This document shows positions 6,541 to 23,217 of a DNA stretch of 56,124 bases, in pieces. Both the position numbers and the translations under genes were made by a program. Source of the stretch: Candidatus Moraniibacteriota bacterium (GTDB lineage: Bacteria > Patescibacteriota > Minisyncoccia > Moranbacterales > UBA11712); contig JAQVJV010000004.1 of the NCBI GenBank assembly GCA_028695025.1, forward strand, positions 1 to 56,124, given 5' to 3'. Below the pieces are notes generated by a model. It was not told the DNA's origin and ran no database searches. It was given only the letters and a program-made list of their open reading frames with translations. The stretch's first letter is position 1; each line of letters begins with the position of its first letter.

Positions 6541-6613
6541 TGGGCAATACAGGAATCGAACCTGTGACCTTTTCCATGTCAAGGAAACGCTCTAACCACT
6601 GAGCCAATTGCCC
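6541..6613 (-). tRNA. tRNA-Val (anticodon GAC)
   Basis: The reverse complement folds as a 73-nt cloverleaf: GGGCAAT/ATTGCCC acceptor, GCTC/GAGC D stem, TTTCC-TTGACAT-GGAAA anticodon arm, ACAGG-TTCGATT-CCTGT T arm. No encoded CCA. Confidence 0.93.
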
Positions 6614-6617
6614 GATG

Positions 6618-6689
6618 TGGGACTGGTAGGGATCGAACCTACGACCAAGCGGTTATGAGCCGCGCGCTCTGCCACTGAGCTACAGTCCC
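6618..6689 (-). tRNA. tRNA with CAT anticodon (elongator Met, or Ile2 if lysidinylated by TilS)
   Basis: 72-nt cloverleaf: GGGACTG/CAGTCCC acceptor, anticodon loop CTCATAA, GTAGG-TTCGATC-CCTAC T arm. The G1:C72 pair argues against an initiator. Confidence 0.88.
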
Positions 6690-13575: not shown

Positions 13576-14079
13576 ATGCCAATTGGCAAATTTTCAGATC
13601 AAAGGGTGGGAGTTTTGGTGGATATTCAAAATATGTATTACTCCGCCCGGGTTCTTTATAAGAAAAAAGTGAATTTCAAGGAAATTTTGAAAGCGGGTGT
13701 CGCCAACCGCAAACTCATCCGCGCCATTGCCTACGGAATCAAAACCACCGAAGGCCTTGAAAAAAATTTTTTCGACGCGCTCCAAAAATCAGGATATGAA
13801 GTTCGTACCAAAGATCTCCAGATCTTTCCCGGCGGCGCAAAGAAAGGGGACTGGGACGTTGGTATCACGGTGGATGCCATCAAATTGGCCGGACACTTGG
13901 ATGTGATTGTGCTGGTCACCGGGGACGGGGACTATATCCCACTGGTTGAATATCTCCAGAACACCAAAGGCTGCCGCGTGGAAGTGATCGCTTTTTCTGA
14001 ATCGGCTTCCGCAAAACTCATTGAATCCGCCGACGATTTCATCAACTTGAGCGATAGCAAGAAAAAGTTTTTGATATAA
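13576..14079 (+). CDS. NYN/LabA-like predicted ribonuclease
   Basis: VGVLVDIQNMYYSA...VIVLVTGDGDYIPLVEYL...VEVIAF. The acidic-residue pattern is typical of LabA/NYN domains. Confidence 0.8.
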   Translation: MPIGKFSDQRVGVLVDIQNMYYSARVLYKKKVNFKEILKAGVANRKLIRAIAYGIKTTEGLEKNFFDALQKSGYEVRTKDLQIFPGGAKKGDWDVGITVDAIKLAGHLDVIVLVTGDGDYIPLVEYLQNTKGCRVEVIAFSESASAKLIESADDFINLSDSKKKFLI

Positions 14080-14194
14080 TTCATAATTATTTTTTAAATC
14101 CAGCCACGTTCGAGCTGATAACACACAATTGTTTCAATAAATGTTGAATTAATTGCGTGTAATTTGCTTCTAGCGCTGTCTGGAAAATTTATCC

Positions 14195-16300
14195 ATGTCA
14201 GTGAAAAAATTTGAGACCGAAATCGCCGGAAGAAAACTCGTCCTCGAAACGGGCCTTTTGGCCGGACAAGCCAACGCTTCCATAACAGCCCGATACGGCG
14301 ACACCGTAGTCCTTGCCACCGCCGTGATGAGCCGCGCCGCCCGCGAGGGAATGAACTATTTTCCCTTGATGGTGGATTATGAAGAGAAATTCTACGCTTC
14401 CGGAAAAATCAAAGGGAGCCGCTTCATCAAGCGCGAAGGAAGGCCGACCGATGAAGCAGTGCTGAACGGACGCCTCATCGATCGGACATTGCGTCCGCTT
14501 TTCAACCAGCAAATGCGGAACGAGGTGCAAGTCATCATCACCGTCCTTTCCATCGACCAGGAAAATGATCCGGCGCTTGTCGGAACCATTGCCGCTTCCG
14601 CCGCCCTCGCCGTTTCCGATATTCCCTGGAACGGCCCGGTGGGAGCCGTCCGTATCGGAGAAAAAAACGGGGAGATCGTCATCAATCCTTTCAACGGGGA
14701 CCTTGCTTCAAGCGCTTATGACATTTTTGCCTGCGGAGTCGAAGGAAAAATAAACATGATTGAAACCGGCGCCCGAGAAGTTTCGGAAGAAAAAATCTTC
14801 GCCGCTTTTGTTGAAGCGCAAAAAGTCATTGACCAAATCGTCGCATTTATCAACGGCATCCAAAAAGAAATTGGAAAAACCAAGCGGGAAGCCATCATAA
14901 TCGCGCCCGACGAAGGCTTCAAAAAAGAGATTGTCGGTCAATTCTCGGAAAAAATTGCGCCGGCGCTATATCAAAAAGACCACAACATCCAAACCCAAAT
15001 GCAAAACGATCTTTTTGATGAAGTTGCCGCATATGTCAAGGAAAAATATCCGGAAGAAGCAAGCAACAAAAAAGAACTCGCCCTTGCCGCTGTTGACGCG
15101 GAAATGGAAAGGCTGTTCGAGGAAAATGTGCTTGAAAAAGACGAGCGGCCGGACGGACGGAAACTCGACGAGGTGCGCCCCATCTCCTGCCAAGCGGGGC
15201 TCCTTCCCCGCACGCACGGATCCGCGCTTTTCACCCGCGGGGAAACCCAGGTTCTTTCGGTTGTCACCCTCGGCGCTCCCGGAATGGAGCAAATTGTGGA
15301 CACGATGGAGCTCGACGAGAAGAAACGTTTCATGCATCACTATAATTTTCCGCCCTTCTCTGTCGGGGAGGTGCGGCCCATGCGCGGTCCGGGCCGGCGG
15401 GAAATCGGCCACGGAGCGCTCGCCGAAAAAGCGCTTGTTTCCGTTGCGCCTGATAAGGGCAAATTTCCCTATACCATCCGCGTTGTGAGCGAAGTCCTTT
15501 CTTCAAACGGTTCTTCTTCAATGGCCAGCACTTGCGCTTCGAATCTTGCCCTCATGGACGCGGGAGTCCCGACCAAAGCCGTCATCGGCGGAATCTCGGT
15601 CGGAATCGTGGTTGGGAGTGGCGGAAAATACAAACTCCTTTCCGATATCCAAGGGCCTGAAGACCATTTCGGCGGGATGGATTTCAAAATAACCGGGTCA
15701 AAAGAAGGCATCACCGCCATCCAGCTTGACGTGAAAGTCGACGGCCTCACAGCCGATATGATCCGCGATACTCTCGAACAATCCCGCAAAAATCGGATTG
15801 CAATCATCAACATCATGAACGAAACTATCGATGCGCCGCGAGCCGACCTTTCGCCGTATGCGCCGCGCGTCATCACCATCCGCATCAATCCCGACAAGAT
15901 CCGCGATGTCATCGGCCCGGGTGGAAAAGTGATCAACCAGATTATTGATGAAACCGGAGTGGAAATCGATATCGAAGACGACGGGCTTGTGTTCATCACT
16001 TCCGACAATAAAGAAGCGGGAGAAAAAGCTCTCCAGTGGGTGAAAAATCTCACCCATGAAGTTGTTGCCGGGGAAGAATTCAAGGGGCGCATCACTCGCA
16101 TACTCAACTTCGGCGCCTTTGCTGAAATCCTACCGGGACAGGAAGGGCTTGTTCATATTTCGGAAATATCGGAAAAAAGGATCGGGAAAGTGGATGATGT
16201 TCTCAAGGTTGGGCAAATCGTCAACGTGAAAGTGAAAGAGATCGACAATTTGGGAAGGATCAACCTCACTATGCGCGGACTCAAAAATAGTGTAGAATAG
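14195..16300 (+). CDS. pnp: Polyribonucleotide nucleotidyltransferase (PNPase)
   Basis: Two RNase PH domains plus KH (GPGGKVINQI) and S1 (GRITRILNFGAFAEILPGQEGLVHISE). Confidence 0.97.
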   Translation: MSVKKFETEIAGRKLVLETGLLAGQANASITARYGDTVVLATAVMSRAAREGMNYFPLMVDYEEKFYASGKIKGSRFIKREGRPTDEAVLNGRLIDRTLRPLFNQQMRNEVQVIITVLSIDQENDPALVGTIAASAALAVSDIPWNGPVGAVRIGEKNGEIVINPFNGDLASSAYDIFACGVEGKINMIETGAREVSEEKIFAAFVEAQKVIDQIVAFINGIQKEIGKTKREAIIIAPDEGFKKEIVGQFSEKIAPALYQKDHNIQTQMQNDLFDEVAAYVKEKYPEEASNKKELALAAVDAEMERLFEENVLEKDERPDGRKLDEVRPISCQAGLLPRTHGSALFTRGETQVLSVVTLGAPGMEQIVDTMELDEKKRFMHHYNFPPFSVGEVRPMRGPGRREIGHGALAEKALVSVAPDKGKFPYTIRVVSEVLSSNGSSSMASTCASNLALMDAGVPTKAVIGGISVGIVVGSGGKYKLLSDIQGPEDHFGGMDFKITGSKEGITAIQLDVKVDGLTADMIRDTLEQSRKNRIAIINIMNETIDAPRADLSPYAPRVITIRINPDKIRDVIGPGGKVINQIIDETGVEIDIEDDGLVFITSDNKEAGEKALQWVKNLTHEVVAGEEFKGRITRILNFGAFAEILPGQEGLVHISEISEKRIGKVDDVLKVGQIVNVKVKEIDNLGRINLTMRGLKNSVE

Positions 16301-16445
16301 AAACAACCTTTTTTCATAAACCACAAAAACAAAAAACGAAGCGCGATTCTTACGGAATTTCAAATCGACTCTTGTTAGTATAATTTTGTACATTCGTAAA
16401 GATTCGCCTGCCTGCCGATGAGACAGGTAATTCGTAGAGACCCAC

Positions 16446-17669
16446 ATGTTTCAATTCAAAAACGCAGGTCCCAATGCTCTCACTCCCAATATTCCCAACC
16501 AGGTAGCACCCAGCCCGCCGGCAAAAATAAGGACTTTCAAGGAGGATTTGGAAAATTTCCAAAAAACCGGAAAAACTGCTGGCGATGAAGAAATATCCGT
16601 TCCGATGAAAGAATCGAGAAGTACCGCCCAGGAAAATAAGCCGGCCATCCAGGAAAAACCGGAAGAAAAGCCAATGGCTGAAACCAGCTTGTTCAACCAG
16701 GCAAAAAGTGAGCTTCCGCCGGACAGCCCCTTTCAATCCGTTCCTGCTCCGCCGCCATCTTCTGCCATTGCTGGAAACAATGAACTGCCCCTTTCTCAAG
16801 ATAATGCCTCGTCTCAATCTTTCTTCGGAGAAAAACCTGCCGCAACGCCCAAAAGAGAAGATTTGGACAATATTGATATTTCCGGGGATAAGCCCAAAAA
16901 AAGCCACGCCGGCCTATTGTTGTTCATTTTTTTGGTCATGCTGGGCGCCGGAGCCTGCTATTATTGGTTTTTTATCGGGAACAATACTGTCTCCCTTTTT
17001 GGATACACAATCGGAAAAACCATTTCTTTGGAAAGTATCAATCCGGAGCCGGAATCGGAACAGGCGCAAACACCGGAAACGTCATCGACAACGACTGATG
17101 CTCCGGAAGCGCAAAATCAGAACTTCCGCAATTTGGTGGTTGATATGGGCGGAAATGAAAGCCAGCCGATTGCCGCCGCCGCCAAAAGATTTGCCGCTGA
17201 TTTTCTTGCTTCAGCCGAGGACGGCCAGTTGGTGGAAATAAAAGTATCCGGAAAAGACGGCCAGGCAATCGGAAAAGATGATTTTGTTTCCGGATCCAAA
17301 ATCACTGTCCCTGATGCTGTTTTTTCCAAATTGTCTGAAGATTATAGCCTTTTCGCCCGAAAAGAAGAGGATGTGGTGCGGATCGGACTGGTTTTCAAAA
17401 CGGTCACTTCTTCAGGGCTGGCGGAGGAAATGAAGCGATGGGAACCGACAATCGCCAGCAACCTGGAAAATCTTTATGTCGACAGGCCGTCGATTCCCGC
17501 GTCGACCACATTCAGCTCGACCCAATACAAAAGCGCCGACATCCGATATTTCAACTTTTCGAGCCCGAAAGACACCTCTCTTGATTATTCCGTGATTTCC
17601 AATTTCGTCATTATCGGAACATCCAAAGACACCATGCGCGCCATACTGGATTATATGTCGGCAAAATGA
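16446..17669 (+). CDS. Membrane-anchored hypothetical protein
   Basis: 407 aa. Pro/Ala/Ser-rich N-terminus, one TM (AGLLLFIFLVMLGAGACYYWFFI), and a 230-aa extracytoplasmic domain. Confidence 0.7.
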   Translation: MFQFKNAGPNALTPNIPNQVAPSPPAKIRTFKEDLENFQKTGKTAGDEEISVPMKESRSTAQENKPAIQEKPEEKPMAETSLFNQAKSELPPDSPFQSVPAPPPSSAIAGNNELPLSQDNASSQSFFGEKPAATPKREDLDNIDISGDKPKKSHAGLLLFIFLVMLGAGACYYWFFIGNNTVSLFGYTIGKTISLESINPEPESEQAQTPETSSTTTDAPEAQNQNFRNLVVDMGGNESQPIAAAAKRFAADFLASAEDGQLVEIKVSGKDGQAIGKDDFVSGSKITVPDAVFSKLSEDYSLFARKEEDVVRIGLVFKTVTSSGLAEEMKRWEPTIASNLENLYVDRPSIPASTTFSSTQYKSADIRYFNFSSPKDTSLDYSVISNFVIIGTSKDTMRAILDYMSAK

Positions 17670-17813
17670 TATGAATTCAAAGTTCAAAAATAAAAATGCA
17701 AAATGACAGTATAAAGTTGGAAGCTTATAAATGCTGAAATCATTTTAACATTCAATAAATTTTGCATTTTTAACTGTCATTTTTATTTTTTATTTTTACA
17801 TTTTCAATTTTAT

Positions 17814-17842
17814 TTGACCAATCCTTCAAAATCTGCTATACT
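17814..17842 (+). promoter_or_regulatory. Near-consensus sigma70 promoter with no ORF behind it
   Basis: TTGACC (17814..17819), exactly 17 nt, TATACT (17837..17842). Confidence 0.6.
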
Positions 17843-17868
17843 GTATATGTACCTTGAAAAAGCCAAAG

Positions 17869-17921
17869 GTTTACGAGTTCCAATCACAATTTCCCCCTAT
17901 TTGTGATTGGAACTCGTAAAC
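17869..17921 (+). ncRNA. Perfect 21-bp hairpin (candidate small RNA or palindromic element)
   Basis: gtttacgagttccaatcacaa (17869..17889), 11-nt loop tttccccctat, ttgtgattggaactcgtaaac (17901..17921). It starts about 20 nt downstream of the predicted TSS. Confidence 0.45.
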
Positions 17922-18039
17922 TTCCCTATATCTTTTCCCAACGCGGAAAGGGTTCGTCCTTACAATTGTGAGGATTCAAAAACAAAAATAAAAATTTTTG
18001 TCAAAAAATTTTTCAAAAATAAAAATCAAAATTAGGTTC

Positions 18040-18325
18040 CTTTTAAACCGTAGGGAGGTTATACGATAACGCTCGACATATACGCAAAATATATGCCACC
18101 GTATGTACTTGTTCGCGCACTCACCCGGCGCAACGGTTCTCGGTTGACATATTGGTATATGTCAAACACCGGGCGCTGCCGCCACTTAATATATTTTTGC
18201 GGGCGCTTGCGGCGCCCGGTATCAGATAACTTGCCCTGTTAAATTCCGCGTAGCGGAAATTTTTACAGAGTAAAATTATTTAACAGGGTGAATGAATAGA
18301 CAGCCTTCAAGGGCGGTTTTTTTGT
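18040..18325 (+). ncRNA. Unassigned structured RNA candidate (GC-rich core in an AT-rich spacer)
   Basis: 9-bp hairpin at 18144..18165. Mutually exclusive helices: 18168..18176 with 18212..18220, versus 18200..18206 with 18212..18218. Three-way junction with an 11-bp closing stem (18234..18244 / 18278..18288) around two hairpins. T7 tract at 18317..18323. Confidence 0.4.
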
Positions 18326-18333
18326 TGCCAAAA

Positions 18334-18361
18334 TTGACACGGTTTAACACATTGATATAAT
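18334..18361 (+). promoter_or_regulatory. Promoter placing the TSS on the ATG of the next ORF (leaderless)
   Basis: TTGACA (18334..18339), 16-nt spacer with TG, TATAAT (18356..18361). ATG at 18368, 6 nt after the -10. Confidence 0.6.
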
Positions 18362-18367
18362 GAGCGC

Positions 18368-18559
18368 ATGGAAGAAGTTTCGGAAAAATCAAAAGCCTAT
18401 TCAGAGATTGCGCGTGATATTGGTCAAGTATTCTTTGCTTCGATGTTTATCGGTCCCATAATTTCGAGCTCCGTAAATTTCACTTTGACATTTTATGGGT
18501 TAACGCTTTCTATTCTTGCTTGGTATTTGAGTATTTTGTTTATCAAAAATAATTTATGA
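18368..18559 (+). CDS. 63-aa two-helix membrane peptide
   Basis: MEEVSEKSKAYSEIARDIGQVFFASMFIGPIISS...LTLSILAWYLSILFIKNNL. Leaderless start. Confidence 0.5.
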   Translation: MEEVSEKSKAYSEIARDIGQVFFASMFIGPIISSSVNFTLTFYGLTLSILAWYLSILFIKNNL

Positions 18560-18654
18560 ATAATAATATAAACAATATTATGGCAACATTTTATATTTTA
18601 GGCGCCCTCGTCCTTATAATTCTTTTGCTAATGGCTATTTATAGCAAAAAATAA
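18556..18654 (+). CDS. 32-aa single-TM micro-peptide
   Basis: The ATG overlaps the previous stop (ATGA). MNNNINNIMATFYILGALVLIILLLMAIYSKK. Confidence 0.4.
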   Translation: MNNNINNIMATFYILGALVLIILLLMAIYSKK

Positions 18655-18658
18655 TATC

Positions 18659-18769
18659 GTGCAGTCGCTTTTCAACGCTCCAATTCAGCAATATATCATC
18701 GCCGCAATTCTTGTGGTCTTATTTGTTCTTGTTGTTATTTATTCCGAAAACCAGAGCAAGAAACCCTAA
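18659..18769 (+). CDS. 36-aa single-TM micro-peptide
   Basis: GTG start 4 nt after the previous stop. VQSLFNAPIQQYIIAAILVVLFVLVVIYSENQSKKP. Confidence 0.35.
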   Translation: MQSLFNAPIQQYIIAAILVVLFVLVVIYSENQSKKP

Positions 18770-18797
18770 AAATACCAAATTCTTTTCTTTGCGCATT

Positions 18798-18824
18798 AAA
18801 AAGCGGGCCATTCGGTCCGCTTTT
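18798..18824. terminator. Bidirectional terminator
   Basis: aaaaa-gcgggcc-attc-ggtccgc-tttt between convergent + peptides and - strand ORFs. Confidence 0.75.
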
Positions 18825-18827
18825 GAG

Positions 18828-19169
18828 TTAATCCTCTTTTAGTTTCTCGTCATCTGCAAAAATTATACAGAGCGAGGCTACAAATGCTATAAACAAAAGA
18901 AAAACCGGAATAATAACGAACCTCCCACATAGAAAATGAAGATTCATTAACCCTGAAGCGCTTATTTCAGTAACAGTCGGCTCTTCATGAAAAAATGTGC
19001 CGATGAATTCAGTATATCGCGCCGCAAACTTAATGGGACTGTCGCCAAGCGACAATTTTGATAAAAAATTAGCAAGAGCAGGCTGGGAACAGTCAACTCT
19101 TGTTAACTTTCTATCAAATTTCTTTCTTTTTGTTGGGTTTTCGCGTTTCCTTTTCGTTTTTGGACGCAA
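18828..19169 (-). CDS. Hypothetical protein with a basic N-terminus and a C-terminal TM helix (start uncertain)
   Basis: 113-aa ORF with only a TTG start, abutting the transposase stop. It could be a remnant, or a shorter peptide starting at MNLHFLCGRF... Confidence 0.3.
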   Translation of the reverse strand: MRPKTKRKRENPTKRKKFDRKLTRVDCSQPALANFLSKLSLGDSPIKFAARYTEFIGTFFHEEPTVTEISASGLMNLHFLCGRFVIIPVFLLFIAFVASLCIIFADDEKLKED

Positions 19170-20205
19170 TGCCCCCTAGGCGGGGCGAGTCTTGAGCGGC
19201 AGATTGAGGACCGCTTTTTTCAAATTGTGAGCCAAGGCTTCAAAGTAGCATTGCATCAACACTTTTACTTTTCCTTTGAACTTGGCTTTCTTTCTTAACT
19301 TGGAAAATGTTCCTTCGAAAGGCATCCGCATTTTCGATTTCCAGTAATCCAAATCTTTGTTTTTGGTTTTGTTTTTTCGTTTGCGGATGATTCCGCTGTG
19401 GCAACCTTTGCTTCGGAGAACGAATTCTGATTTCCGATTGTCGTAGAGTTTGTCCGCGAAAATCATGCAGTTCCGAGGGCAAATTTCTTCCAAGGTTTGA
19501 AAATCCAAAATGTTGGCGGGGGTAACGGTGAGTTTCTCAATCAATCCGAAACGCATGTCGACGGCCACGTGGTTTTTGTAGCCGAACCAGATGTTGGTTT
19601 TGGATTTGGCTCCCCAGCGAGCCTCTTTGTCCGCGGCGTAATCTTTCACATTGGCATTGTTCAGTTTTTCTTCTCCGTTTTCAATGGCCTTGTCCCTTTC
19701 TTTCCAGAGAGCGGTTTTGGAAACAATGGCCGAAGCGTCGATGAATTTGGAAACGTCTCCGAACAGGCCTTTACTTCTCAATGCCTCGTTCACTTCATTG
19801 AAAACGCGGGCGATGTTTTGGGTTCCCAGCCTTTTTCTCAATTTTCCGAAATACGAATGATCGGGAGTAACTTCCGCAAGGCCGAAACCGCAGAACCACC
19901 GAACGGCGATGTTTTCTTTCACGGCGTTTTCCATTTCCCGATCGGAGTAATCTTCCCAGAATTGGAGAAGAAGAGCCCTGAACCCTTTTTCAATGTCAAT
20001 TCCCATTGTTCCCGTTTCAGAGTAAAGATTCCTCAAGGGATTGGTCAACCCGGGAAAGTCAATCACTTCGTTGAGTTTTCTGAATGCGTGGTCTTTTTTT
20101 ACCAGGAGATTGAACACTTCTTCTTCCGTTCCGAAAAACATCTTGGTTGTTTTGTCTTTTAGAGGCTGCATTTTTGTTTTGTTTAAGGCTTAATCTGCCT
20201 TAATT
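19170..20205 (-). mobile_element. IS5-family insertion sequence (ends not resolved)
   Basis: Single transposase ORF. 7-bp palindrome ttaaggc/gccttaa at 20183..20203. Only a weak 10/11 inverted match (19198..19208 vs 20189..20199). No target duplication identified. Confidence 0.5.
19176..20171 (-). CDS. IS5-family DDE transposase
   Basis: 331 aa. N-terminal DUF772-like region (FRALLLQFWEDYSDREMENAVKENIAVRWFCGF) and a DDE domain (FIDASAI..., WFGYKNHVAVD..., ADKLYD). Confidence 0.88.
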   Translation of the reverse strand: MQPLKDKTTKMFFGTEEEVFNLLVKKDHAFRKLNEVIDFPGLTNPLRNLYSETGTMGIDIEKGFRALLLQFWEDYSDREMENAVKENIAVRWFCGFGLAEVTPDHSYFGKLRKRLGTQNIARVFNEVNEALRSKGLFGDVSKFIDASAIVSKTALWKERDKAIENGEEKLNNANVKDYAADKEARWGAKSKTNIWFGYKNHVAVDMRFGLIEKLTVTPANILDFQTLEEICPRNCMIFADKLYDNRKSEFVLRSKGCHSGIIRKRKNKTKNKDLDYWKSKMRMPFEGTFSKLRKKAKFKGKVKVLMQCYFEALAHNLKKAVLNLPLKTRPA

Positions 20206-20574
20206 TTAGCAAAAATGCGGTCTTTTTTCCATTGGTTTCAAGGTGCTATTCGGCGACAGTCCCTTAATCCCGTTCTTTTCCGTGACGTAGTAAGTGACCC
20301 GGTTTTCTTGGATGTAGATCTCGTGCTGATTGTTTGAGAACTCTTTTTTGTACAGCTCAAACGGAATCAGAACAATAGAATCGCTTCTGAATTCAATTAT
20401 CGGGTAATACTTTCCGTCAGAGGATGGATTTTTAATGACTGAATTCTCCGGCATCCAGAAAGAGTGTTGCTCATCAACCGGCCAGCCCAACCAAAGCAGG
20501 GGAATAATCAAAATGATCGATAACAGCGCCACAGCCCCGGCTTTTATTTTATCATCCATCGTTGATTCTTTCAT
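20206..20574 (-). CDS. Membrane-anchored hypothetical protein
   Basis: 122 aa with SD aaggagag upstream and an N-terminal TM (AGAVALLSIILIIPLLWLGW). Confidence 0.65.
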   Translation of the reverse strand: MKESTMDDKIKAGAVALLSIILIIPLLWLGWPVDEQHSFWMPENSVIKNPSSDGKYYPIIEFRSDSIVLIPFELYKKEFSNNQHEIYIQENRVTYYVTEKNGIKGLSPNSTLKPMEKRPHFC

Positions 20575-20664
20575 CGCTTTTCTCTCCTTGCTTGCGGGAA
20601 ATAGAGCAGGAGCAAGGTTGCACCTTGCTCCGCATTCAAAAAGTTTTAGGCTGAATTGTCTTGT

Positions 20665-20979
20665 TTACCATGATTCCCTGTCCTTACTTAGCCGTAATTC
20701 TATAAGGCACACAAAAAGAAGAAGATAAATGAGCCATGGTAAAAGAATGAAAACATCCATCCACTTTTGAAAATTAGGATTACAGGAATATCTTCTCCAA
20801 ACTTCACTCATAATCTCATGAAGTTTTGGAAACCAGGAAAATTCCGAATGGGTAAAAATATAAGCAATAACCGCCAAAACGATTGCTGGCATATAACCAT
20901 TGCGCATAAGCAAGCCGACTAAGCCCGGTAATACAAAACAAATCAAAAAACAAAGTAAATAGATCATCCAGTTTTCCAT
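20665..20979 (-). CDS. Small polytopic membrane protein
   Basis: 104 aa from MENWMIYLLCFLICFVLPG, with SD aaaaggagaaaag upstream of the ATG at 20979. Confidence 0.6.
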   Translation of the reverse strand: MENWMIYLLCFLICFVLPGLVGLLMRNGYMPAIVLAVIAYIFTHSEFSWFPKLHEIMSEVWRRYSCNPNFQKWMDVFILLPWLIYLLLFVCLIELRLSKDRESW

Positions 20980-20992
20980 CACTTTTCTCCTT

Positions 20993-21307
20993 TTATTTCC
21001 AAGTCTTAAAGCCATTTTTACAAAAGGTGCAAAACTTAGTGAATTGAATTTCCGGCCATTTATCCCTTCGCAAATCCAAATATTTATCAAGAGCATATAA
21101 AGGTAATCCGACAATAATCACAAATATGATCACTGATGCTGCAATAGCGGCAATAACGACAAACAAGGGCCAGCTTAACACAATCATAAGACCGCATTCT
21201 TTTGCGCCTCCATTGGGCGGCAAAAACCCCTCATTTTCAAGGCGACACATTATTCCCCATACAATAAAACCTATGGGCAAATATAGAATTGCGATTAGAT
21301 AGTTCAT
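20993..21307 (-). CDS. Small polytopic membrane protein
   Basis: 104 aa, MNYLIAILYLPIGFIVWGIM..., with SD aaaaggagggg upstream. Confidence 0.6.
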   Translation of the reverse strand: MNYLIAILYLPIGFIVWGIMCRLENEGFLPPNGGAKECGLMIVLSWPLFVVIAAIAASVIIFVIIVGLPLYALDKYLDLRRDKWPEIQFTKFCTFCKNGFKTWK

Positions 21308-21463
21308 TTTCCCCTCCTTTTATTCAATTTTCAAGGAACACTGCATTATAGGGTAGGGGAATTGAATATTCAATAATATCCGTCTTTTTTGGAATATTTA
21401 TTCCATTATATTGACATTTAAGCCAATATTATCTAAATTTAGAGTAGTCGGTTTTTTACGAAT

Positions 21464-21575
21464 AAATCCCCCTTAGTCCCCCTTTATGAAAGGGGGAAAC
21501 CGGACTCTCTCCCTTTCTTAAAGGGCCCGCTTCGCCAAAGCTACAGCGAGGTGAGAGAGATGGAGAGGGATTTTT
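21464..21575 (+). repeat. Double-hairpin repeat, copy 1 (carries a 28-nt internal insertion)
   Basis: aaatccccc...ccccctttatgaaagggggaaaccggactctctccctttcttaaaggg[cccgcttcgccaaagctacagcgaggtg]agagagatggagagggattttt. It ends 5 nt before the ATG at 21581. Confidence 0.8.
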
Positions 21576-21580
21576 ACAAT

Positions 21581-22324
21581 ATGACCCTCCAAAAAACCCT
21601 CGAAAACCTGGGGATTCACGAAAAAAAGGCGGAAGTATATCTCGCCTGTTTGGAGTTGGGAAGCGCGACGGCCTATCTCATCGCCAAAAAAGTGGGGCTC
21701 AAGCGCCCGACCGTCTATGACCTTGCGAACCAGCTCATGCGCGAGGGACTGCTCCATAAATCCATGCGCGGAAACGTCAAATATTTTTCACCCGCCGATC
21801 CGGAAAAACTGGTTCGGAGTTTGCGGGAAAAAGAACATCAAATCCGACGCGTTATGCCGGAACTTCAGAATCTCTACAACTCGCCGAAAGCCAAACCCTT
21901 GATCCGCTATTTCGAAGGGAAAGCGGGTATTATGGAAATGTATGAGGACAGCTTGCGATCGTGCAAAAAAGGCGACGAGATTTTGGCCTATGTCGGAGAG
22001 GATATTTTGCGGCACCTGCCTGAATATACCAAGGATTATGTCGCGCGAAGAGTAGAAAAAGGGATTGTGCTTCGCGGGATTTATAAAAATAATCAAGAAA
22101 TGGCCAAATATCTCGACAAAAGCGCTGGCCAGCTGCGGATTACCCGCATCCTTGACGAAAAAAATTTTCCGGTGAATAACGAAACGAATATATACAAAAA
22201 CAAAATCGCGATCGCAAGCTACGGGAAAGAAATGTTCGGAATGATTGTTGAGTCGGAAGAAATCGCCCGGTCGCAGAAAGCGATTTTCGAATTGGCTTGG
22301 AAAGGAGCGGGGAGAATTTCTTAA
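21581..22324 (+). CDS. TrmB-family transcriptional regulator
   Basis: N-terminal wHTH: LENLGIHEKKAEVYLACLELGSATAYLIAKKVGLKRPTVYDLANQLMREGLL. ATG at 21581 within the 21551 ORF. Confidence 0.8.
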   Translation: MTLQKTLENLGIHEKKAEVYLACLELGSATAYLIAKKVGLKRPTVYDLANQLMREGLLHKSMRGNVKYFSPADPEKLVRSLREKEHQIRRVMPELQNLYNSPKAKPLIRYFEGKAGIMEMYEDSLRSCKKGDEILAYVGEDILRHLPEYTKDYVARRVEKGIVLRGIYKNNQEMAKYLDKSAGQLRITRILDEKNFPVNNETNIYKNKIAIASYGKEMFGMIVESEEIARSQKAIFELAWKGAGRIS

Positions 22325-22392
22325 ATCCCCTTTATTAAAAAGGGAAACCGGTCGCTCTCCCTTTCTTAAAGGGAGAGATGGAGAGGGATTTA
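22323..22392 (+). repeat. Double-hairpin repeat, copy 2 (intact)
   Basis: aaatcccctttattaaaaagggaaaccggtcgctctccctttcttaaagggagagatggagagggattt. Contains a 10-bp perfect stem ctctcccttt/aaagggagag. It ends 7 nt before the ATG at 22400. Confidence 0.8.
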
Positions 22393-22399
22393 AAAAAAT

Positions 22400-22792
22400 A
22401 TGCCAACTGAACAAATAAAAACCATCGGCCAGATCGGCGAGCGGATTGCCGCGAACTACTTCAAGGCTCGGGGATGTGAAGTCCTTGAAATGAATTTCGA
22501 AAACCAGGTTGGATATCGCTTGGGAGAAATCGACGTCGTTGCCCGCGATCCAAAAAATGATGAAATTATTTTCATCGAAGTGAAAACAAGAAAAAAGGGA
22601 GGATATAATTCCGAAGCCCCTGAACTGGCCATCAGCCGGGGAAAATATCACAAACTCAAAAAAATAATCTCGACTTATCTCCGCAAAAATAATCTTCTCG
22701 ATTCCAGCTATCGCCTCGACGCGATTGCCATTGAGCTTGATATGGAAACCCGAAAAGCGGATCTCCGGCACTTGAAATATATTTATTACTAG
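22400..22792 (+). CDS. yraN: YraN-family (UPF0102) endonuclease-like protein
   Basis: GERIAANYFKARGCEVLEMNF...GEIDVVARD...IIFIEVKTR. Confidence 0.88.
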   Translation: MPTEQIKTIGQIGERIAANYFKARGCEVLEMNFENQVGYRLGEIDVVARDPKNDEIIFIEVKTRKKGGYNSEAPELAISRGKYHKLKKIISTYLRKNNLLDSSYRLDAIAIELDMETRKADLRHLKYIYY

Positions 22793-22860
22793 TGTTATAC
22801 TTAATCTTGCCACAAAGTTCAAATACTATATACAAAATACTAAATACTAGATACAAATTT

Positions 22861-23217
22861 ATGATCGACCAAGCCATAATGGAGGAACTCAAACAAAAAC
22901 TGCTTGCAGAAAAAGCGCGTCTTGAGAAAAATCTTTCCCAAACAGAAACCGAAAATCCGGAAGCCGACCGCGAATATGAAACAAAATTTCCCGAAGTGGA
23001 CCGCGACGAAGAGGAAAATGCCGATGAAATGGAAATGTATGAGAGCAACCTCGCCGCCGACGAGACTATGAAAGGGGAGCTCGAAAAAATCGAAAAGGCA
23101 TTAGCCTCTATGGAAAACGACACTTATGGATTTTGCGCCAATTGCCAAAAAGAAATTCCGCTTGAGCGTTTGCGCGCCTATCCCCAAGCCGATACTTGCC
23201 TTGATTGCGAGAAATAG
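22861..23217 (+). CDS. DksA/TraR-family C4 zinc-finger protein
   Basis: Coiled-coil N-terminus and CANCQKEIPLERLRAYPQADTCLDCEK. ATG at 22861 within the 22792 ORF. Confidence 0.8.
   Translation: MIDQAIMEELKQKLLAEKARLEKNLSQTETENPEADREYETKFPEVDRDEEENADEMEMYESNLAADETMKGELEKIEKALASMENDTYGFCANCQKEIPLERLRAYPQADTCLDCEK

Follow-up and report, generated by a model that had tools for sequence, protein, structure and literature searches.

Downstream of the genes for PNPase and a membrane protein, a 56,124-nucleotide stretch of DNA from Candidatus Moraniibacteriota bacterium (assembly GCA_028695025.1, contig JAQVJV010000004.1, positions 1 to 56,124 of the forward strand; hereafter the window) contains a spacer at 17670-18367 in which the longest open reading frame (ORF) does not exceed 49 amino acids. 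An initial annotation made from the sequence alone had seen no credible ORF in this interval and had noted its dense structure, and both points hold. The spacer carries a gene for a structured non-coding RNA (ncRNA) with two domains joined by A-rich single-stranded linkers: a 5' domain made of hairpin P1 with its loop UUUCCCCCUAU, and a 3' domain made of helix P-A, a hairpin with the loop UCACCCGG and then helix X. Its length is ~480 nt in the window and, by a crude estimate, roughly 370-710 nt in relatives. Covariation backs four helices, namely the 21-bp P1, the 16-pair P-A, the small loop-2 hairpin and the 12-bp GC helix X, and the evidence establishes a new family, that of a stand-alone, single-copy, multi-domain structured RNA. 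The features of the gene are as follows, where MFE stands for minimum free energy.

17814-17842, + strand: sigma-70-type promoter, with -35 element TTGACC (17814-17819), 17-bp spacer and extended -10 element TGcTATACT (17834-17842)
~17848-18324, + strand: structured ncRNA gene, with its own promoter on the 5' side and a weak hairpin and T7 tract at the 3' end
17849-17868, + strand: 5' leader with boxA-like GUACCUUGAAAAA; homologues have GAACUUUAACAA or GUUCUUUCAAAA
17869-17921, + strand: hairpin P1, a 100% complementary inverted repeat of 21 perfect bp (17869-17889 with 17901-17921)
17922-17929, + strand: tail after P1, UUCCCUAU, pairing with 18050-18057, with compensatory CG to UA changes (alignment columns 61-68 with 93-100)
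17932-17974, + strand: two small hairpins of the MFE fold, the first at 17932-17951, the second variable and ending near 17974
17975-18034, + strand: A-rich linker, AAAAACAAAAAUAAAAA...CAAAAAUAAAAAUCAAAA, with repeats spaced roughly six nucleotides apart
18035-18049, + strand: small hairpin GGUU-CCUUUUA-AACC of the MFE fold; other clades have GUUCUUUCAAAC... here
18050-18066, + strand: segment SD, GUAGGGAGGUUAUACGA, pairing with 17914-17929 and a rival of segment S5 for 17914-17921
18076-18162, + strand: long-range helix P-A of 16 pairs (18076-18086 and 18091-18096 with 18146-18162), with a bulge in the 5' strand, enclosing the loop-2 subdomain
18115-18131, + strand: loop-2 hairpin, with a covarying 4-bp stem (18115-18118 with 18128-18131) and a loop (18119-18127) containing UCACCCG
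18168-18220, + strand: helix X of 12 bp (18168-18179 with 18209-18220), the GC-rich core of the initial annotation
18234-18288, + strand: three-way junction of the MFE fold, a lineage-specific insertion outside the conserved family core
18303-18324, + strand: probable 3' end, a weak GCC-UUCAA-GGC hairpin, then GG and a T7 tract

The predicted transcript 17848-18330 (483 nt) has an MFE of -170.1 kcal/mol, as opposed to -112.3 +/- 5.8 kcal/mol for dinucleotide shuffles (z = -9.9). This energy, taken with the features at the coordinates listed, shows that the features described are real and far beyond chance. The most conserved of them, the 21-bp hairpin at 17869-17921, had escaped the initial annotation.

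The promoter, already recognised there as TTGACC-17-TATACT, scores a 10/12 match plus the extended -10 TG in a promoter scan, and the predicted transcription start falls at ~17848-17850. A second promoter that had been proposed (~17998-18026) reaches only 9/12, lies within the A-rich linker and has hexamers that are not conserved. Directly after the predicted start, GUACCUUGAAAAA at 17849-17861 resembles, by eye, the boxA element of rRNA operon leaders; a second boxA-similar motif, internal to the RNA, belongs to a hairpin. The T7 tract that had been noted after the three-way junction is present, and at the 3' end GGCGGUUUUUUUGUUG is conserved in the closest clade, while canonical intrinsic terminators occupy this position in other clades.

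By the upstream PNPase (14195-16300), the closest relatives among one-per-species genomes are a Candidatus Moraniibacteriota metagenome-assembled genome (MAG; L001, 79% identity) and a second MAG (L002, 74%), both of which carry a homologous spacer with 67-70% identity over ~400 nt. A three-way alignment of these with the window shows an invariant promoter, an invariant 41-nt hairpin core and a conserved 3' end, GGCGGTTTTTTTGTTG. The base of P1 has undergone compensatory change from GUUUAC/GUAAAC to GCCAAU/AUUGGC, as has the GC helix, from CCGGGCGC/GCGCCCGG to CCGGCGGGC/GCCCGCCGG. The indels are not multiples of three and the region is therefore non-coding.

A much wider set of homologues was gathered with the 19-mer ACAATTTCCCCCTATTTGT, which comprises the P1 loop and four closing pairs on each side. 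It was found in 110 metagenome stretches, where by a rough estimate ~10 would be expected by chance, and was without a match in viral contigs; removal of near-duplicates left 76 non-redundant sequences. All but two of the 110 matches share a promoter ~50 nt upstream, the boxA-like motif and the long hairpin, the lower stem of which differs between clades and stays paired. Within the 90 nt upstream of the non-redundant homologues, 47 of 76 have the promoter TTGAC(C/T)-17-TG-n-TATA(A/C)T with a score of at least 10/13. Downstream, the shared blocks begin with small hairpins (the loop CAACGC of the hairpin at 17932-17951 recurs in many homologues), AAAACAAAAACAAAAA, a CUUUUU...AAAAAG hairpin with an A-rich loop, and GUUCUUUCAAAC; they continue with CAUGUAYAC...GUAUACAUG, GCCUUCACCCGGGCUA, a GC-rich helix with an AU-rich loop, a variable tail and a terminator. 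The A-rich linker is represented in homologues by the conserved blocks AAAACAAAAACAAAAA and AAAAUAAAAAUAAAAAAUAAAAAG, and a conserved GUUCYUU motif at the hairpin 18035-18049 served as an alignment anchor. The carriers amount to more than 100 uncultured genomes of Patescibacteria (the Candidate Phyla Radiation, CPR) and metagenome contigs, most of the metagenome contigs being without assigned taxonomy. In the other clades that have the RNA, PNPase shares ~55-61% identity with that of Moraniibacteria.

With R1, a covariance model built on the 3' domain, the + strand of the window scores 167.9 bits and the - strand 18.2 bits; the model also recovers divergent clades that were left out of its alignment. 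Among 78 PNPase loci of other species it found only one further homologue, at 9780-10200 in L017, a Patescibacteria MAG, 1.9 kb downstream of pnp. This homologue lacks the 19-mer, and its first hairpin and loop differ (GUUUCCCCAGAAUUAAAUUGGAGAAAU). Retained are the A-rich block, the long-range complementarity, helix X and the dksA-like neighbour. A U-run comes directly after helix X, and after it a promoter for the dksA-like gene, with no yraN. This homologue would be useful for defining the minimal core of the family. Beside pnp in Firmicutes, Chloroflexi and the other labelled CPR lineages sampled there was neither an R1 match nor a cluster of the motifs.

Folding and covariation analysis of homologous spacers, a check that the initial annotation had proposed, yielded conserved and covarying helices. 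For the 3' domain I used an alignment (A2) of 66 non-redundant sequences, with helices taken from RNAalifold and the structure completed by hand. Overall, 89.2% of cells are paired and 377 are compensatory, compared with 108 +/- 12 in column shuffles (0 of 500 as high); controls with slid partners give 28-47% paired. P-A is 95% paired with compensatory change in all 16 of its 16 pairs. Local hairpins at 18077-18095 and 18145-18164 were tried in its place and rejected, being only 81-84% paired with far fewer compensatory changes. The 9-bp hairpin annotated at 18144-18165 is accordingly present in the MFE fold, but covariation favours the long-range pairing of this segment with 18076-18096 (95% vs 81-84%).

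Within P-A, the loop-2 stem shows GC, CG, AU and UA pairs, with only 61% of cells pairing in the MAFFT register. In its loop core UCACCCGG, C65, C66 and G68 are invariant and T62, C63, A64, C67 and G69 are conserved in at least 90% of the 66 sequences, which were selected without this motif. The segment GGGUGA in the 3' tail (18286-18291) is complementary to UCACCC of loop 2 (18121-18126), a possible pseudoknot. In the window GGGUGA overlaps the stem of the lineage-specific three-way junction, and a similar tail element, ACGGGUGAA or ACCGGG, occurs in some subclades and not in others. The junction itself, as annotated at 18234-18288, appears in the MFE fold; it is absent from L001 and L002 and has no counterpart, by BLAST, in any of 190 loci.

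Helix X is 92-94% paired with frequent GC-to-CG and UA-to-CG swaps. The pairing of 18168-18176 with 18212-18220 that had been pointed out is thus real, forms part of the MFE fold, extends to 12 bp and covaries: helix X duplexes formed within a sequence (self) average -24.6 kcal/mol and those formed across sequences (cross) -13.3 kcal/mol, with self better in 66 of 66. Nested inside it, under an AU-rich loop, is a CGCC/GGCG helix (18180-18183 with 18202-18205), which is mostly invariant and 73% paired. The initial annotation had also supposed a switch in which 18212-18220 pairs with either 18168-18176 or 18200-18206. The local alternative 18200-18206/18212-18218 is possible in every homologue, where GGGCG occurs twice. 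Its energy is -12.7 vs -24.6 kcal/mol for helix X, and its self and cross energies (-12.7 vs -11.6 kcal/mol) reveal no co-evolution. Because the alternative is weaker and does not co-evolve, I read the GC region as one nested hairpin, not as a switch.

Mutually exclusive pairing does exist in this RNA, in the 5' domain and not in the GC core where it had been placed. Over 69 sequences, 89.6% of P1 cells are paired, with 157 compensatory cells vs 36 in shuffles. The upper stem (17878-17889 with 17901-17912) is nearly invariant and closes the 11-nt loop UUUCCCCCUAU (17890-17900), which is invariant among the collected homologues. The lower stem is variable and covarying: its 5' strand S5 (17869-17877) pairs with S3 (17913-17921), and in a 21-sequence alignment of the closest clade (A4) it is 100% paired with compensatory change in eight of nine pairs. 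The segment SD forms a second helix with the same strand. In ~70 homologues the best duplex found is this long-range one, and its position is consistent; its sequences are entirely different between clades (CUCGUAAACUUCCCUAU/GUAGGGAGGUUAUACGA in the window, CGCUUCUCACUGUUC/GAACGGUAGAAGC and UCCUUCCCCUGUCCUAU/AUAGGACGGCUGAAGG in others). In A4, 94% of its cells pair, and 11 of the 16 pairs, some of them in the overlap, show compensatory change. The duplex S5:S3 has a self energy of -15.5 vs a cross energy of -7.7 kcal/mol and SD:S3 one of -18.8 vs -10.2 kcal/mol, self being better in 65 of 66 for each; the two pairings have, on average, ~10.6 nt of the shared strand in common. Since both pairings co-evolve with the shared strand, two helices that are unable to coexist are both maintained. 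The 8-nt free tail beside the contested 8-9 nt corresponds in its geometry to a toehold strand-displacement device.

Two other readings of this domain were rejected. Loop 1 was considered as a partner of an internal GUAGGGAGG, and the GUAGGGAGG segment turned out to covary with the tail after P1 instead; and the GTTT...AAAC hairpin was considered as a CRISPR repeat or anti-repeat, and its arm occurs only twice in the window, as the hairpin's own two arms. In the closest clade the long-range segment at 18046-18060 reads AACCGUAGGGAGGUU. This resembles the sequence AACCGUAGGGGAACC of the 16S rRNA 3' minor domain (helix 45), and loop 1, CCCCCUAU, would presumably be complementary to GUAGGGG of that region.

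Is this RNA a known one? The initial annotation could not match the region to consensus sequences of RNase P, tmRNA, SRP, 6S or riboswitches, and a scan with all 4227 models of Rfam 15 (including RNase P, SRP, 6S, tmRNA, riboswitches and large orphan RNAs), another check it had named, found no match to a known family. At gathering thresholds nothing was found for the RNA in the window, and in 15 homologue loci only tRNAs passed; two adjacent tRNA genes (6541-6689, minus strand, 75 and 69 bits) are the sole matches of this level in the whole 56-kb window. At E <= 10 the segment 17400-18900 gave only sub-threshold matches to miRNAs and small RNAs (best E-value 0.39), as did 17 homologue loci at E <= 5, and ARAGORN predicted 0 genes in 17000-19000. 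Literature searches, including one for the loop sequences, returned no description of such an RNA.

The nearest likenesses are therefore of a general kind. Large orphan bacterial ncRNAs such as OLE, GOLLD, ROOL, HEARO and raiA are likewise several hundred nucleotides long, with many covarying helices and invariant loops, confined to lineages, stand-alone, and found by comparison before a function was assigned; the present RNA differs from them in having no match in Rfam 15, a host among the Patescibacteria, long A-rich linkers and a covarying exclusive pairing at its 5' side. With RoxS/RsaE and LhrC it shares a C-rich run in a hairpin loop, and these are the only recurrent weak similarities in Rfam, all on P1: LhrC (RF00616) scores 21.7 bits (E = 2.1) on 17858-17937 against a gathering threshold of 110, and RsaE/RoxS (RF01820) scores 28.4 and 26.6 bits against 79 in two homologues, over 61 and 161 nt of the P1 hairpin region, and nothing in the window. 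Unlike these RNAs of Firmicutes, it is four to five times longer, has an additional conserved 3' domain and belongs to an unrelated phylum. Like the boxA-containing leaders of rRNA operons, it has a strong extended -10 promoter followed by a boxA-like sequence and a long untranslated transcript. Unlike them, it has a predicted end after ~480 nt and no rRNA behind it (I rejected this identity, there being no SSU, LSU or 5S rRNA in the window or in the 15 homologue loci), and the boxA likeness is by eye only. Finally, in common with attenuators and riboswitch platforms, it has exclusive helices competing for one strand and a GC-rich helix near a T-tract, whereas here the covarying alternative sits in the 5' domain, ~400 nt upstream of the T-tract, there is no aptamer match and promoters of their own precede the downstream genes.

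In nearly all loci the neighbouring genes lie on one strand in the order PNPase, membrane protein, RNA, UPF0102/YraN and DksA/TraR zinc-finger protein. The gene for ribosomal protein S15, rpsO, and a NYN-domain gene precede pnp in a conserved cluster (13576-17669 in the window; also in L191). The membrane protein is a single-pass protein of ~380-410 amino acids that, like three tiny ORFs downstream of the RNA, has no match in Pfam. Between its stop codon and the RNA promoter, at 17674-17809, is an AT-rich imperfect inverted repeat with arms of 55 nt (73% complementary), within which a perfect 14-nt inverted repeat, TAAAAATGCAAAAT/ATTTTGCATTTTTA, occupies 17691-17704 and 17759-17772; it could be the terminator of the upstream gene, or a UP-like or regulatory element. 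In the window yraN is at 22400-22792 and the dksA-like gene at ~22849-23217, and ~4 kb (18330-22380) are inserted between the RNA and these genes, with the RNA intact. The insertion includes:

18334-18361, + strand: promoter of the tiny ORFs, a 12/12 match with TG, missed by the initial annotation
18368-18769: three tiny membrane ORFs of 63, 32 and 36 amino acids
19176-20171, minus strand: IS5-like transposase, 0.9 kb downstream of the RNA
20206-21307, minus strand: further small hydrophobic ORFs

The initial annotation had tied the spacer to these tiny peptides, which it directly precedes. As the peptide ORFs are part of the insertion and have their own promoter, the RNA is not functionally tied to them. 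The RNA in L168 likewise has a homologue of the 63-aa ORF behind it. In homologues, too, promoter-like sequences precede the downstream genes.

What might such an RNA do? A stable RNA acting in trans, probably together with proteins, is suggested by three features: a promoter that is strong and conserved, the untranslated length, and the pair of conserved C-rich apical loops on covarying stems. In the mechanism that I propose, P1 would form first, during transcription. The SD segment would then dock on the 8-nt tail, which would act as a toehold, and would displace S5 by branch migration, freeing the 5' leader with its boxA-like sequence; the outcome may be a toggle of conformation or of maturation. 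A conserved partner, whether protein or G-rich RNA, would recognise the two C-rich apical loops, and the RNA would act as a stable regulatory RNA or ribonucleoprotein (RNP) rather than as the leader of adjacent genes. On balance I consider it probable that this is an uncatalogued, single-copy structured ncRNA of a family found in part of the Patescibacteria, Moraniibacteria included, and that it works as a stable trans-acting RNA or RNP with a toggle in its 5' domain. The A-rich linkers and the neighbouring genes of RNA metabolism are compatible with a possible link to RNA decay or to the ribosome.

Several observations weigh against parts of this account. The homologues were gathered by an exact match to the P1 loop, and the invariance of the loop is partly an effect of this selection; the distant homologue in L017 carries a different one. 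The MFE fold of the window combines the full P1 with only the tail part of the long-range helix, and the toggle could be a folding intermediate rather than a regulated switch. The ends of the transcript, ~17848 and ~18324, are predictions from sequence, and the 3' hairpin, which is weak in the clade of the window, is not called by a terminator scan (its stem has fewer than 5 pairs). The pseudoknot between loop 2 and the 3' tail can form in some subclades only. The shuffle controls ignore the relatedness of the sequences, which the slid-partner and cross-sequence controls keep. Lastly, the 56-kb window shows no enrichment of sites that could pair with loop 1 (30 vs 24.7 expected).

This last result, from a small sample of targets, bears also on the idea that the RNA regulates by base pairing, its C-rich loops (CCCCC and CACCC) seeding on G-rich, Shine-Dalgarno-like sites of mRNAs in the manner of RoxS/RsaE or LhrC. 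Two C-rich loops are indeed exposed, one of them invariant among the collected homologues and the other near-invariant, and C-rich-loop small RNAs are what the weak Rfam similarities point to. Loop 2 has 25 complementary sites in the window vs 14.7 expected (1 of 100 shuffles as high), two of the 25 being inside the RNA itself, and I draw no conclusion from this count. The scores of those similarities are nevertheless far below gathering, and the RNA exceeds such small RNAs four- to fivefold in size and is also more complex. As a separate explanation I hold seed pairing to be unlikely, while noting that it could be the trans mode of the RNA proposed above. An extremely diverged housekeeping RNA (6S, RNase P, SRP or tmRNA), beyond the reach of current models, would account for a single-copy gene with a strong promoter, conserved across divergent lineages among neighbours rich in RNA metabolism (rpsO, the NYN-domain gene, pnp and yraN), and 6S RNAs are poorly conserved in sequence. 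Yet even weak Rfam matches to these four were lacking at the E-values given above, as was a tmRNA with ARAGORN, and the RNA was not detected beside pnp in the other labelled CPR lineages sampled. 6S RNA is a rod of ~180-200 nt with paired 5' and 3' ends and a large central bubble; the covarying helices found here form two separate hairpin-capped domains with A-rich linkers and unpaired ends, an architecture that fits neither the 6S rod nor the P4 pseudoknot core of RNase P. This makes a diverged housekeeping RNA quite improbable.

A cis-acting leader, attenuator or riboswitch, controlling the downstream genes through the alternative pairing in the GC-rich 3' domain, would draw on the ability of strand 18212-18220 to pair with two upstream segments in every homologue, on the terminator-like helix X and U-run of L017, and on the conserved order of RNA, yraN and dksA-like gene. 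Against it, co-evolution is lacking for the local alternative, which falls ~12 kcal/mol short of helix X even before the inner nested helix is counted, L017 has no yraN beside the RNA, the downstream genes have promoters of their own after the T-tract, and a leader of 400-600 nt would be unusually large. Given the separate promoters of the flanking genes and the survival of an intact RNA despite a 4-kb insertion before yraN, I regard a leader role as highly improbable. Least credible of all is an element acting at the level of DNA, such as a palindromic operator, a replication origin or the remnant of a mobile element. The upper P1 stem is a nearly invariant 12-bp perfect inverted repeat, AT-rich repeats flank the promoter and an IS5-like transposase is close by, but the compensatory changes and G-U pairs fit the + strand only, the spacer between the palindrome's arms is invariant too, and cumulative GC skew has no turning point here. 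Moreover, many lineages have the element in single copy and in synteny, and in most of them there is no transposase among the flanking ORFs.

Going beyond the trans-acting RNA favoured here, this could be the founding member of a new class of large, housekeeping-type RNAs in part of the CPR, whether RNP, catalytic or regulatory, without a functional counterpart among known families, with a 5' switch that works by toehold strand exchange and two C-rich loops that engage the ribosome or the RNA-decay machinery encoded next to it. I put this forward tentatively, as a possibility that falls somewhat short of probable.

A large part of bacterial diversity belongs to the CPR, or Patescibacteria, whose genomes are tiny and of which almost none have been cultured; literature searches found no published lineage-specific ncRNA for them. 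An Rfam entry for this family would improve the annotation of many CPR genomes, and metatranscriptomics, structure probing, cryo-EM and pull-downs can all be directed at this RNA as a definite target. It is also a case from nature in which two helices that exclude each other co-evolve, in an arrangement like that of a toehold strand-displacement device. The position of the gene, its promoter and its two loop sequences have been kept across lineages whose PNPases have diverged to the extent given above, and this retention under strong genome reduction implies that the RNA has an important function.

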